This document shows, one piece after another, positions 11,586 to 16,072 of a stretch of 64,000 nt of DNA. This DNA is from Minisyncoccota bacterium (GTDB lineage Bacteria > Patescibacteriota > Minisyncoccia > UBA6257 > 02-FULL-45-10c): NCBI GenBank assembly GCA_028716745.1, contig JAQUPE010000001.1:30203-94202 (forward strand). Direction: 5' to 3'. The notes below the pieces were generated by a model, which did not search any database, was not told where the DNA came from, and saw only the letters and a list, made by a program, of their open reading frames with translations. Within the stretch, counting starts at the first letter, position 1, and every line of letters starts with the position of its first letter. The position numbers were made by a program, and so were the translations under genes.

Positions 11586-11960
11586 ATGGGTTTGTACAAG
11601 CCGCAAAATATAAGTAAGTTCGTCTATTGGACGCCAAGAATACTGTCAATATTATTTATTCTTTTTTTGGCAATGTTTTCTTTGGATATTTTTGGAAATG
11701 GATACACATTTTGGCAGACAATTTTAGGATTGTTTATGCATAATATTCCGGTATTTATCTTATCGGCAGTTTTAATAATATCGTGGAAATACGAAATAAT
11801 TGGTGGAGTTGCCTTTATTTTGGCAGGATTACTATATGATTTTATGGGGCTTAAGGGCCCATTTGAGTGGTATAAGCTGTCCTGGATTTTAATAATATCC
11901 GGACCCGCATTTTTGATAGGAATTTTATTTATGATTAATTGGATAAAGAAAAATAAATAA
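11586..11960 (+). CDS. hypothetical integral membrane protein
   Basis: ORF, multiple hydrophobic helices. Confidence 0.4.
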   Translation: MGLYKPQNISKFVYWTPRILSILFILFLAMFSLDIFGNGYTFWQTILGLFMHNIPVFILSAVLIISWKYEIIGGVAFILAGLLYDFMGLKGPFEWYKLSWILIISGPAFLIGILFMINWIKKNK

Positions 11961-12434: not shown

Positions 12435-12481
12435 ATTTTCCAAAATCGCCATGGTGGCGATTTTTTGTTATTATATAAAAT

Positions 12482-12934
12482 ATGAACAATAAAAAAGGAT
12501 TTTCTACATTAGAAGTAATTGTGTTGGCAGTCATTATTTTGGCTATAGGCGGGGGAGTTTATTATTGGCAAAACCAAAAAAATAATTCAGCAACCGAGCC
12601 ATTGGCTGGAGAGAATAAGAATATTTATACAAAGTGTTTTAAGCAAATATTTTCTGATAACAGCATTATTTCTGCTAAATTTACCTTTGCCGAGAATTCC
12701 GTTGAGGGTCCATTGTCTTATTTATGGGCGCAAAAAGATAATAGCATAGGTATTTTTAAGGGAATGTTGAAAGAGGGTCTTATTGTTGGGGATTATACTT
12801 TTATGTCTGAGGGTCAGGAATCTTTGGGAAAATCAGCTTTTCGTTATGATGGTAAGTCATTGATCCAGGGGTTCGGTCCTAACTTAGACGAGTTTAGCGG
12901 GGCAGTTACTTTAAATGAGGTGCCTTGCGAGTAA
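12482..12934 (+). CDS. type IV pilin-like / pseudopilin protein
   Basis: N-terminus MNNKKGFSTLEVIVLAVIILAIGG matches the prepilin cleavage/methylation motif (G|FSTLE + hydrophobic helix). Confidence 0.6.
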   Translation: MNNKKGFSTLEVIVLAVIILAIGGGVYYWQNQKNNSATEPLAGENKNIYTKCFKQIFSDNSIISAKFTFAENSVEGPLSYLWAQKDNSIGIFKGMLKEGLIVGDYTFMSEGQESLGKSAFRYDGKSLIQGFGPNLDEFSGAVTLNEVPCE

Positions 12935-12960: not shown

Positions 12961-13296
12961 ATGGCAGTTATTTTAACCGACGAAAATTTTGAAAAAGAAA
13001 TATCCAGCGCCGACAAACCGGCACTGGTTGATTTTTTTGCGCCATGGTGCGAGCCATGCAATATGCTTGCGCCGATACTAGAAAAGGTGGCTAAGGATTT
13101 GGAGGGGAAATTTATTTTTATGAAAGCTAATTTAGACGACGTTCCTTTGGCGGCTCAAAAGTTCGGAGTAGAGGTAATTCCAACAGTCATTTTATTTAGA
13201 GATAATAGGCCCATCAGCGGTTTTACCGGGTTGGCGCCGGAAGATGCCATTAAGGAATGGCTTGAAAAAATGATAAAAGAAAAAATAGTAATATAA
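12961..13296 (+). CDS. trxA: thioredoxin with atypical CEPC active site
   Basis: FFAPWCEPCNMLAPILEKVA thioredoxin-fold signature; 111 aa. Confidence 0.8.
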   Translation: MAVILTDENFEKEISSADKPALVDFFAPWCEPCNMLAPILEKVAKDLEGKFIFMKANLDDVPLAAQKFGVEVIPTVILFRDNRPISGFTGLAPEDAIKEWLEKMIKEKIVI

Positions 13297-13302
13297 ATAA
13301 TT

Positions 13303-13572
13303 ATGGAGGAAAATAATAAAGAAAAATTAATAAAAGAATACGTTGAATATGCTAAAAGCAACGGCATCCAATTAAATCCCGACGCAAGAGTTGTCGAGGG
13401 GATAGTCGGCGGTTTATTAAAGAACGAAGAAAAATATGGAAAAAGGTATTGTCCGTGCAGGAGAGTTTCCGGAAACCAAGAGGAGGATTTAAAGAAGATT
13501 TGTCCCTGCTATTATCACAAGGGCGAAATTGAAAAAGACGGACGCTGTTTTTGCGGATTATTTGTAAAGTAA
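13303..13572 (+). CDS. ferredoxin-thioredoxin reductase catalytic-subunit-like protein
   Basis: CPC-x14-CPC-x12-CFC spacing resembles the FTR catalytic chain CPC..CPC..CHC cluster; 89 aa; immediately downstream of thioredoxin. Confidence 0.5.
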   Translation: MEENNKEKLIKEYVEYAKSNGIQLNPDARVVEGIVGGLLKNEEKYGKRYCPCRRVSGNQEEDLKKICPCYYHKGEIEKDGRCFCGLFVK

Positions 13573-13578
13573 TTTTAA

Positions 13579-14040
13579 ATGGCATTAAAAGTTCCTTTCT
13601 ATAAACAAAGCGCTAATTATACATGCGGTCCCACCTGCCTACAGATGGTTTTTAAGTTTAACGGAATATTTAAAAGCGAGAAAAAGTTAGCCAAAGAGGC
13701 TCATACGCGCTCTCGGCATGGAACATATCGTCGGCATATGGCAGAAGCAGCGCGTAAAAATGGATTTTTTTGTTTTATTAAAAGCGGTTCTTCTCTTAAA
13801 GATATTGAAAAATTTATAAGGCTAAAATTTCCTATAATAGTTTATTTTATTGAACCCGCAGATAATATTGAGCATTATGCCGTAATTATAGGGTTGGATA
13901 AAAATAAAATTATTATGAACGATCCCTGGAACGGAAAGGGATTTAAAATGAATAAAATGGAATTTTTATCAAGATGGAAAAGCGAAAATGGCAGAATAAA
14001 TAAATGGATGATGGTTGCCTCAAAAACCGGATTTAATTGA
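13579..14040 (+). CDS. peptidase C39-like (papain-fold) domain protein
   Basis: YKQSANYTCGPTCLQMVF resembles the C39 Q..CGxxCLxM catalytic region; downstream His (EHYAVII) and Asp/Asn (NDPWNG). Confidence 0.5.
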   Translation: MALKVPFYKQSANYTCGPTCLQMVFKFNGIFKSEKKLAKEAHTRSRHGTYRRHMAEAARKNGFFCFIKSGSSLKDIEKFIRLKFPIIVYFIEPADNIEHYAVIIGLDKNKIIMNDPWNGKGFKMNKMEFLSRWKSENGRINKWMMVASKTGFN

Positions 14041-14070
14041 AAAATAACGCCATTTGTTTTATAATATATC

Positions 14071-14143
14071 CGCGGGATGGAGCAGTAGTTAGCTCGTCTG
14101 GCTCATAACCAGAAGGTCGTTGGTGCAATTCCAACTCCCGCAA
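14071..14143 (+). tRNA. initiator tRNA-fMet (CAT)
   Basis: cgcggga...gctcataacc...tcccgcaa; C1:A72 mismatch and three G-C pairs in the anticodon stem typical of the bacterial initiator; closely resembles the E. coli tRNA-fMet sequence. Confidence 0.85.
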
Positions 14144-14299
14144 CCGCGAAAAATGCGCTAAAGCGCATCTCGCGGCAGGCCATCAGAAATGGACTGACGC
14201 GGAATAAGCCCCCACAATTGTGGGGGGTTTATTTTATGCGAGCCCCGCGATAAAATCCTCAGATTTTATTTTGCGGGGCAAGTAATTTATAATTTAGTA

Positions 14300-14563
14300 A
14301 TGCATTATGTATATTTGTTAGAAAATATTGAAAATAAAAATTGGTATATAGGATTCACAGAAAACATTAAGAGAAGACTATTTGAGCATAATAATGGAAG
14401 GGGCGGACGGACAACAAGAATTGGTAAATCATGGAAAATGATATATTGCGAGGTTTATTTGAATAAAGAAGATGCTGTGGGTAGAGAGAAATTTTTAAAG
14501 GGTGGATCTGGAAGAAAATATTTAAAAAAGCAGTTGACTCATTATTTAAAAAATATAGAATAG
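14300..14563 (+). CDS. GIY-YIG nuclease domain protein
   Basis: YVYLLEN...WYIGFTENIKRRLFEHN = GIY-YIG motif; 87 aa. Confidence 0.7.
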   Translation: MHYVYLLENIENKNWYIGFTENIKRRLFEHNNGRGGRTTRIGKSWKMIYCEVYLNKEDAVGREKFLKGGSGRKYLKKQLTHYLKNIE

Positions 14564-14645
14564 TTTGACTTTTTATGTAAAATGTTTTAATATAAATATA
14601 ATTTGTAAGTTGACAGCATAATACAATCAAGTAAGGGGAGGGCGG

Positions 14646-15200
14646 ATGTTAAAGGGAGTAAAGAAGGTTTCAAAGGAGTACCATTCTCGGATCGGAAGCG
14701 AAATAGAAAAAAGGAGGGGTTCGGAATTTACCTATGAGGACATTACCAAGGCAACGGGGCTAGGCGTTAATACGGTTTGCTGCTGCCTTTCGCAATTCCT
14801 CAGGAAGGGGTTTCTCAACCGCGTTGGCCGTATAACCAGGAAGCCGAGAAATCTCAGGCTTTCCATATTTCGGCAAAGAAAACCTTTGCTGAAAATCGCT
14901 CCCGCAGGAAACGTCGCCGAAGAAGTCTGGCAGATATTCCAGGGCGTTCTGGAAAAAGAAGGCAGCCACTCATACATTTCCGCAAAGGAAATATGGGAAA
15001 GGACAAATGGCTGCAACAGAAAGAGCGTTCGGGGAGTGGTGTCCAGATTGTACTTATTAGGGTACCTCGAGAGATGGAAATCAAAATATTGCCTGAAGGC
15101 GCAGTATAGAGGCATGTCTAGACCTCTCGTGGTCAGCAAGCCCAAATACATCACCGTCCCGCTGGTGCAGCCGCAATACGCAGCCGCGGTCTCCCAGTAG
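14646..15200 (+). CDS. high-G+C hypothetical protein with two winged-helix-like segments (KYCLK motif)
   Basis: Strong SD ggggagggcggATG; ...RLYLLGYLERWKSKYCLK shared with the next gene. Confidence 0.45.
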   Translation: MLKGVKKVSKEYHSRIGSEIEKRRGSEFTYEDITKATGLGVNTVCCCLSQFLRKGFLNRVGRITRKPRNLRLSIFRQRKPLLKIAPAGNVAEEVWQIFQGVLEKEGSHSYISAKEIWERTNGCNRKSVRGVVSRLYLLGYLERWKSKYCLKAQYRGMSRPLVVSKPKYITVPLVQPQYAAAVSQ

Positions 15201-15227
15201 TTTCAGAGTTTTTTAAAAGTTTCACTC

Positions 15228-15260
15228 CCGCGTCACAAGCGCGGGATTTTTTTGTTTTAA
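15228..15260 (+). terminator. rho-independent terminator
   Basis: cccgcgtcacaagcgcggga + T-run. Confidence 0.55.
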
Positions 15261-15398
15261 AAAAGTTATTAACATATTGATTTATTTCAGCGTTAACGTA
15301 TATTTTTCTAGTGAAGTTATGAAAAATTTATTTTTGCAATAACTTAATAATAAATTAGTTTTTTTAAAGATTATTTTGGATGGAAAAGGAGGCGGTGA

Positions 15399-15788
15399 AT
15401 GCAAAGCGACTGTGTCGAAGGTTCTAAATCCCTCAAAGGGGGATATGTTCCTTTGAGGGAAGGGCTGGATTTCAAAGGCAGCGCTGTGGGAGTTGTCCGG
15501 ATGATTTTTCAGGAAATCGACAGGCCTCTTTTTGAAGAGGATATTCTCTGCTATGCCGAGATTTTTTCAAAAAAGAAATTCGGTGCGGCAAGAATAAAAA
15601 CTGCAATTTCCTGCCTGAATCAACAGGGCGCTTTTGAAAGAATCGGAAATAAATATTGTTTGAAAAGCGAATTTTCAAACAAAAAAGTTTCCGAAACAGC
15701 AGGAAAGAAGACAAAGGAAGTTGTCGTGGAGGCGACAGAGTTGGCCAGCGTTGGTTTGGCGTTAACCAGCGCCCCCGTGACGGCCTGA
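15399..15788 (+). CDS. high-G+C hypothetical winged-helix-like protein, paralog of 14646..15200
   Basis: SD aaaaggaggcggtgaATG; ...QQGAFERIGNKYCLK shared motif. Confidence 0.45.
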   Translation: MQSDCVEGSKSLKGGYVPLREGLDFKGSAVGVVRMIFQEIDRPLFEEDILCYAEIFSKKKFGAARIKTAISCLNQQGAFERIGNKYCLKSEFSNKKVSETAGKKTKEVVVEATELASVGLALTSAPVTA

Positions 15789-15950
15789 ATTAATACTCGA
15801 TTTGGTATCCTCGTTGCACAGCAGCGCGAGGATATTTTTTTACCTAAATATTGCCTGTACATTATAAGTTACTATTAACATATGCTATACAAGTTAAAAA
15901 CGCGTTTAATTTGTCAAAACCCGCTTAATTCATTATTATTTTAAATAAGA

Positions 15951-16023
15951 GCCGGCGTAGCTCAGTGGTTAGAGCGAGCGCTTCATAAGCGTTAGGTCGG
16001 TAGTTCAATTCTACCCGCCGGCA
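15951..16023 (+). tRNA. tRNA-Met (CAT), elongator type (could be tRNA-Ile lysidine)
   Basis: gccggcg..gctcagtggttagagc..agcgc-ttCATaa-gcgtt..ggtag-ttcaatt-ctacc-cgccggc-a. Confidence 0.8.
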
Positions 16024-16072
16024 CAGATAACTTTTTGTAAAAGACCCACAAATCTCTTATACTTTTAATATT

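Follow-up and report, generated by a model that had tools for sequence, protein, structure and literature searches.

The closest described relatives of the system reported here are the ferredoxin:thioredoxin reductases (FTRs) of plants and cyanobacteria and the ferredoxin:disulfide reductases (FDRs), and all characterized members of their common Pfam family, PF02943, use ferredoxin (PMC6262447, PMC9025218). The variable FTR subunit (FTRv) has been reported from oxygenic phototrophs only (PMC9025218). According to PMC6262447, the FDR of Methanosarcina acetivorans reduces a thioredoxin (Trx). In M. barkeri, the class III ribonucleotide reductase (RNR) NrdD receives its electrons from an FDR and the thioredoxin-like protein NrdH (work of Wei et al. 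2015 cited in PMC6262447, PMC5704485, and PMC9176816; Table 1 of the latter lists a “Glutaredoxin-like NrdH (NrdD3)”). Fusion of a redoxin to the N-terminus of an FDR is likewise an established architecture, seen in the glutaredoxin (Grx)/FDR protein of Desulfotalea psychrophila (PDB 7pwe). We found no paper in the searchable literature on FTR or FDR in Patescibacteria, the candidate phyla radiation (CPR). Here we describe a cluster of a thioredoxin gene, an FDR-type gene, and a C39-family peptidase gene in a 64-kb stretch of DNA with a low G/C content of 39.5% (contig JAQUPE010000001.1 of a Minisyncoccota bacterium; referred to below as the window). We propose that the first two genes together encode an FDR-type system in which the thioredoxin is reduced at the expense of ferredoxin, a reading to which we assign a probability of about 0.78.

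The three genes are located on the plus strand at positions 12961–13296, 13303–13572, and 13579–14040, where a preliminary description of the window had placed them and with the motifs it had listed; the gaps between the thioredoxin and FDR genes and between the FDR and C39 genes measure 6 nt each. Profile searches assigned each of the three to its family unambiguously. The first gene encodes a TrxA-type thioredoxin of 111 aa, which matches PF00085 in the Pfam profile search with an E-value of 9.2e-28 and scores above the cutoff of the NCBIfam TrxA equivalog TIGR01068 (105.1 vs. 96.8 bits). It is the sole thioredoxin homolog of the window and retains the buried aspartate (VDFF) and the cis-proline (IPT), and a fused Trx-FDR ortholog aligns with bacterial thioredoxins of the PDB at about 1e-28. 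The active site reads WCEPC instead of the canonical WCGPC. The 74 partner thioredoxins of related loci have a WCxPC motif whose central residue varies; it is Glu in 20, Gly in 12, Pro in seven, and Ser in six cases, among others. Glu is the commonest residue at this position and dominates in the nearest relatives, so that CEPC is conserved in the close lineage and is no hallmark of the wider family.

The second gene encodes an 89-aa protein with the cysteine arrangement CPC-x14-CPC-x12-CFC, which is an ordinary stand-alone member of the sizeable PF02943 (FeThRed_B) family. Its residues 7–88 align to positions 3–86 of the 106-position profile with an E-value of 1.8e-25 and 89.4 bits (cutoff 22). 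An exhaustive HMMER search recovered 689 cluster representatives (50% identity) of this family at E≤1e-3, which by their length comprise three architectures: stand-alone proteins, N-terminal redoxin fusions of ∼200 aa, and C-terminally extended proteins. The six cysteines of our candidate, CPC at residues 50–52, CPC at 67–69, and CFC at 82–84, are invariant among 22 homologs, and the pattern CPC..C[PA]C..CxC was found in all of the 81 relatives scanned, with the last motif varying as C[F/L/H/Y/I/A]C. In an alignment, the three cysteine pairs are in register with those of the Synechocystis FTR catalytic subunit (FTRc; PDB 1dj7; CPC/CPC/CHC) and of the M. acetivorans FDR (PDB 4tpu; CPC/CPC/CYC). 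Based on the alignment to 1dj7, the Synechocystis enzyme, we take C50, C67, C69, and C82 to be the ligands of a [4Fe-4S] cluster and C52 and C84 to form the redox-active disulfide. A database match of the protein, from a metagenome-assembled genome (MAG) of Candidatus Pacebacteria (Patescibacteria/CPR), is named [quoted passage not shown] by the NCBI pipeline.

Comparison with known structures places the protein next to FDRs. Its top match among PDB sequences is 4tpu (E-value 2.8e-19, 41% identity, aligned to residues 3–88 of 4tpu only), and 7pwe is matched at 1.4e-13, whereas the plant and cyanobacterial FTR catalytic chains reach only about 1e-4 at 23–26% identity. An AlphaFold2 (AF2) model of the protein (pLDDT 91) was compared to the PDB with Foldseek and superimposes best on 7pwe (TM 0.86, rmsd 1.5 Å), followed by 4tpu (TM 0.80), with an rmsd of 1.5–1.8 Å on these two FDRs, while the TM score on the plant-type subunit 1dj7 is about 0.68; all three matches have a probability of 1.00. 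With the M. acetivorans enzyme it shares the x14/x12 spacing, the lack of an FTRv, and an aromatic residue at the position of the FTR histidine (Tyr in 4tpu, Phe here), and the same spacing is present in 7pwe (CPC-x14-CPC-x12-CYC). Plant and cyanobacterial FTRs belong to the same Pfam family and have the same fold, but differ by an x16/x8 spacing, a CHC motif, and the presence of FTRv, for which no match (PF02941) was obtained in the adjoining genes 12482–12934 and 13579–14040 or in other scanned ORFs of the window. The last cysteine of our candidate is only five residues from the C-terminus, and the protein therefore lacks the C-terminal rubredoxin domain of the 173-aa 4tpu; in addition, a motif scan detected no rubredoxin motif in the ORFs of the window. 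The protein is thus of the FDR type, with the FDR clade as its nearest relatives. It does not qualify as a plant-type FTR, since CHC is missing, the cysteine spacing is different, and no FTRv was found in the window, nor as a strict Methanosarcina-type FDR, since it lacks the rubredoxin domain. The preliminary description had likened it to FTR catalytic subunits, which holds for the family but not for the plant/cyanobacterial type.

Conservation analysis was based on 80 loci of species-representative genomes that encode relatives of the FDR-type protein with 56–73% identity, including ±4 kb of flanking sequence. Most of them are from Paceibacterota, Staskawiczbacteria, Nealsonbacteria, and other Patescibacteria, and some are from MAGs labeled as DPANN archaea. 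In 39 of the 80 loci, the Trx and FDR domains form one continuous ORF of ∼200 aa, and in 30 loci a Trx gene is found directly upstream of the FDR gene. Eight loci have no adjacent Trx and three lack upstream sequence; a Trx is therefore fused to or adjoins the FDR in 69 of the 77 loci with upstream sequence (∼90%). A Pfam search of four of these ORFs confirmed the fusion, with PF00085 followed by PF02943 in each, and a fused Trx-FDR protein is also present in the protein database. That about one in two relatives is a fusion protein, analogous to the architecture of 7pwe, represents strong comparative evidence that the separate thioredoxin and FDR genes of the window would work together. In contrast to 7pwe, the redoxin is a Trx rather than a Grx, and unlike in Methanosarcina, the partner is a canonical TrxA-type protein and neither a Grx-like NrdH nor an atypical Trx. 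A description of Trx-FDR fusions in Patescibacteria was not found in the searchable literature.

Candidates for the electron donor and the client of the pair were sought among the neighbors of the 80 loci, which were clustered and annotated with Pfam. Eighteen loci encode a single-cluster 4Fe-4S ferredoxin of ∼60 aa within 3 kb, 14 of them immediately upstream, and 14 loci have an upstream gene for a GltB-like FMN protein (PF01645). The class III RNR NrdD (PF13597, 6e-188, with an ATP-cone) is found within 3 kb downstream in ten loci, in seven of them directly downstream, and NrdG, the radical-SAM activase of NrdD, in six. Other genes directly downstream of the FDR are housekeeping genes, such as those for Obg (13/80) and MnhE (6/80). 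The clustering of relatives with redoxin, ferredoxin, and class III RNR genes resembles the FDR-NrdH-NrdD pathway of M. barkeri, from which our locus differs in that neither NrdD nor NrdG is encoded in the window and in that the lineage is bacterial (Patescibacteria).

A recurrent cassette in these relatives, for example in six of the loci, consists of genes for the GltB-like FMN protein, the small 4Fe-4S ferredoxin, Trx-FDR, NrdD, and NrdG. Judging by its gene content, class III RNRs of the CPR may receive their electrons from ferredoxin. The catalytic core of the relatives' NrdD proteins could be aligned end to end only with Thermotoga maritima NrdD, including a common CCRL motif. The T. maritima enzyme is a homolog of the thioredoxin-using NrdD of Neisseria bacilliformis and has been proposed by Wei et al. 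not to use formate (PMC4390871), but the T. maritima-like alignment is suggestive only. A further neighbor, found 1–2 kb 3′ of Trx-FDR-Obg in nine loci of a Staskawiczbacteria-like lineage, is a short protein (∼285–300 aa) consisting of the C-terminal domain of the [FeFe]-hydrogenase large subunit (PF02906).

The identities of the genes, the conservation of the cysteines, the fold, the linkage of Trx and FDR, and the synteny of relatives with ferredoxin and NrdDG genes are results of the comparisons above; cluster binding by the present protein, its donor and client, and its dimerization are inferred, with the mechanism deduced from homology to FTR and FDR. In the model that we propose, the 89-aa protein would probably act as a homodimer without a variable subunit, with the [4Fe-4S] cluster on C50, C67, C69, and C82 located beside the C52-C84 disulfide. 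Reduced ferredoxin would supply two electrons in succession. It could plausibly be generated by 2-oxoacid:ferredoxin oxidoreductases, which have been described as widespread among CPR bacteria (PMC5220378). The disulfide would be cleaved with the help of the cluster, and C52 would then attack the WCEPC disulfide of the adjoining thioredoxin, which in its reduced form could serve client enzymes. With this module, dNTP synthesis and thiol reduction in general would most likely draw on the ferredoxin pool and not on NADPH. All of this would extend known biochemistry, and it involves no new mechanism.

Downstream of the redox pair, the third gene (13579–14040) encodes a stand-alone, predicted cytoplasmic cysteine peptidase of 153 aa with a papain-like fold. 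The C39-like signature noted for it in the preliminary description was borne out by profile matches to both PF13529 (Peptidase_C39_2; 7.4e-18, 65.9 bits) and PF03412 (Peptidase_C39; 8.9e-17, 61.6 bits). The motif YKQSANYTCGPTCLQM contains Gln10 and Cys16, and these two residues together with His99 and Asp115 are invariant among 18 homologs; Gln10 would be the oxyanion residue, and Cys16, His99, and Asp115 would be catalytic. An AF2 model (pLDDT 93) is closest to the Bacillus anthracis structure 3erv, to the peptidase domains of ComA, PCAT1, and LahT, and to the pseudomurein endoisopeptidase PeiR. The Gln/Cys/His/Asp set and the fold are thus shared with C39 peptidases. In contrast to ComA, PCAT1, and LahT, the protein has no ABC transporter attached to it, and its gene is followed by a tRNA gene. 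Its homologs are likewise all stand-alone proteins, of 125–175 aa and from Patescibacteria, where cytoplasmic forms of ∼150–175 aa are encoded in variable contexts. No gene for a double-glycine substrate was identified near the peptidase gene, in a survey that did not include a systematic substrate search. A conserved C-terminal tail (..F.LGKQY.P..) of most C39 family members is missing in our candidate and in its two closest homologs, as judged from homologs P0071–P0094.

Two other readings of the FDR-type protein were considered. That it is an unrelated small Zn-binding protein with a coincidental likeness to FTR, as the preliminary description had allowed, could be argued from its small size and its many cysteines, but is refuted at the level of both sequence and fold: the match covers the full length and, with 89 bits, far exceeds the cutoff of 22, all six cysteines align to FTR and FDR structures, and the predicted fold superimposes on FDRs. 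We regard this reading as having practically no probability left. It is unlikely, but clearly less so, that the protein is not primarily driven by ferredoxin but by a rubredoxin, a flavodoxin, or a GltB-like FMN/Fe-S carrier, or that it is not specific for Trx and acts on other disulfides, with Trx as just one among several partners. Several observations fit this reading or weigh against ours. Besides the absence of the FTRv subunit and of the rubredoxin domain found in characterized relatives, the relatives have F, L, H, or Y at the His86 position; with Phe instead of the FTR histidine beside the cluster and without the rubredoxin domain of the M. acetivorans enzyme, both kinetics and donor could differ. 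Ferredoxin adjoins the FDR in only a minority of the loci (about 20%), and roughly every second locus with a ferredoxin gene encodes the GltB-like FMN protein as well, which is possibly the real partner of the ferredoxin. Moreover, no gene for a ferredoxin, a GltB-like protein, NrdD, NrdG, or another obvious Trx client is present in the 64-kb window, so that donor and client are deduced for this organism from its relatives only. In favor of the ferredoxin-dependent thioredoxin system, a Trx is fused or adjoins in ∼90% of the loci, as would be expected if it were the dedicated substrate, a ferredoxin is found beside the pair in at least eight loci without a GltB-like gene, and the characterized members of the family are, as mentioned, ferredoxin-using throughout.

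A different question is whether the peptidase belongs to the system as well, i.e., whether the three genes form one module in which Trx/FDR keeps the catalytic cysteine of the C39 protein reduced, as in a redox-gated protease, or in which one of the redox proteins is processed by the peptidase. Such a module would agree with the common strand, the 6-nt gaps, and the lack of a terminator-like site between the genes, and with a peptidase that depends on Cys16 and carries a second cysteine four residues further on (CGPTC). This second cysteine is shared by the closest homologs but is not conserved in the C39 family, of which CGxxC is a common variant. The coupling, which the preliminary description had singled out, did not recur in related genomes. 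The 80 Trx/FDR loci were searched with phmmer (E≤10), and no C39 relative was found within 4 kb; none is present among the called genes of five closer metagenome contexts of Trx/FDR. In the two closest homologs of the FDR-type protein (76% and 71% identity), the context is BacA-Trx-FDR-Obg plus an [FeFe]-hydrogenase-like gene, with no peptidase. Conversely, neither Trx nor FDR was detected around C39 relatives in 80 metagenome loci (289 kb in total, 59 with more than 700 bp of upstream sequence) or among the called genes of seven further C39 locations with flanking sequence. The C39 contexts also differ from each other, with neighbors such as glutamate dehydrogenase, sortase/CAP, and Band_7 genes, and the contig of the closest C39 homolog starts 65 bp upstream of the gene and is therefore uninformative on its neighbors. 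As the adjacency is not conserved from either side, the common transcription unit looks lineage-specific and is probably incidental, in line with a compact genome. A three-gene module is accordingly improbable, and more so than a different electron carrier. Slightly less probable still is the specific version in which the peptidase is a dedicated client in this Paceibacterial lineage, switched on by ferredoxin-derived reduction of Cys16 or of a Cys16-Cys20 disulfide; if true, protease activity would be gated by redox state and linked to the ferredoxin pool of the cell. The best explanation is an independent stand-alone cysteine peptidase that would share a transcription unit with the redox pair in this genome only.

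The preliminary description had also inferred a ferredoxin-linked thioredoxin reduction system in place of an NADPH-dependent one, noting that no trxB is seen in the window. The first part is well supported by the pairing with Trx and by the ferredoxin genes upstream in relatives, whereas replacement of the NADPH-dependent route is unproven for this genome. Within the 64 kb of the window, to which the statement applies, trxB is indeed absent: none of the ORFs contains a TrxB (CATC), an FAD GxGxxG, or a 4Fe-4S or 2Fe-2S ferredoxin motif, and a Pfam scan of ten window ORFs of ∼300 aa revealed no pyridine-nucleotide disulfide oxidoreductase. Likewise, ∼1.5 kb beyond the left end of the window, covered by an 8-kb Logan contig, contains nothing relevant with respect to TrxB, ferredoxin, or nrdD. 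A thioredoxin reductase has been reported in at least one Parcubacterium (PMC5220378).

What the comparison adds to known systems is the high frequency of Trx-FDR fusions and a synteny with ferredoxin and NrdDG that recurs across the CPR and in some DPANN-labeled MAGs. If the module functions as proposed, ultra-small fermentative Patescibacteria, and the organisms behind some of the DPANN-labeled MAGs, may run their thiol-disulfide chemistry on low-potential ferredoxin and not on NADPH. Given the recurring arrangement of ferredoxin, Trx-FDR, and NrdD-NrdG genes, deoxynucleotide synthesis driven by ferredoxin, for which Methanosarcina is the only demonstrated case so far, could also be widespread in these radiations. 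A further idea, less exotic and more probable than the redox-gated protease but tentative and with odds somewhat below even, is that many Patescibacteria and DPANN archaea use split or fused Trx-FDR as their main or only Trx-reducing system, which would also drive their class III RNR.

With regard to transcription, a consensus scan predicted a terminator-like hairpin at 12442–12464 (+) and the first terminator-like hairpin 3′ of the cluster at 14209–14226 (+), but none on the plus strand between 12464 and 14209. Co-transcription of the Trx, FDR, and C39 genes, which the preliminary description had suggested from their tight spacing, is therefore plausible, with the two hairpins as possible 5′ and 3′ limits of the transcription unit. 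The unit could also include a prepilin-like gene at 12482–12934 and a tRNA-Met(CAT) gene at 14071–14145, which precedes the downstream hairpin.

The prepilin-like gene (+) is located directly 5′ of the thioredoxin gene, and its product has an N-terminus resembling type IV prepilins (KKGFSTLEVIVLAVIIL) and a weak NCBIfam match to a prepilin peptidase-dependent protein (E 0.0025), but no Pfam match. This gene may be part of the transcription unit of the Trx/FDR pair. Two genes 5′ of the thioredoxin gene, a DUF7670 membrane protein (PF24709, 6e-33) is encoded at 11586–11960 (+). On the opposite strand, an ORF of 77 aa (13352–13585) overlaps the FDR gene and has a counterpart in relatives, where it forms one of the neighbor clusters (cluster 7). 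We rejected it as a gene, since it recurs only as a shadow of the conserved FDR and Trx coding sequence.

A strong promoter-like site (11/12 matches) is found at 14037–14065, 5′ of the first tRNA-Met gene. A second tRNA-Met(CAT) gene is located at 15951–16024. We considered the two tRNA genes as the borders of an integrated element and discarded this idea: they encode different tRNAs with only ∼60% identical positions, and no att-like direct repeat was found. The region delimited by them (14071–16024) contains three ORFs, one of which encodes a GIY-YIG nuclease (14300–14563). The other two, at 14646–15200 and 15399–15788, are weakly related to each other and have no assigned function; they have a ...KYCLK... 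segment in common, and the product of 14646–15200 shows faint matches to winged helix-turn-helix (wHTH) domains.

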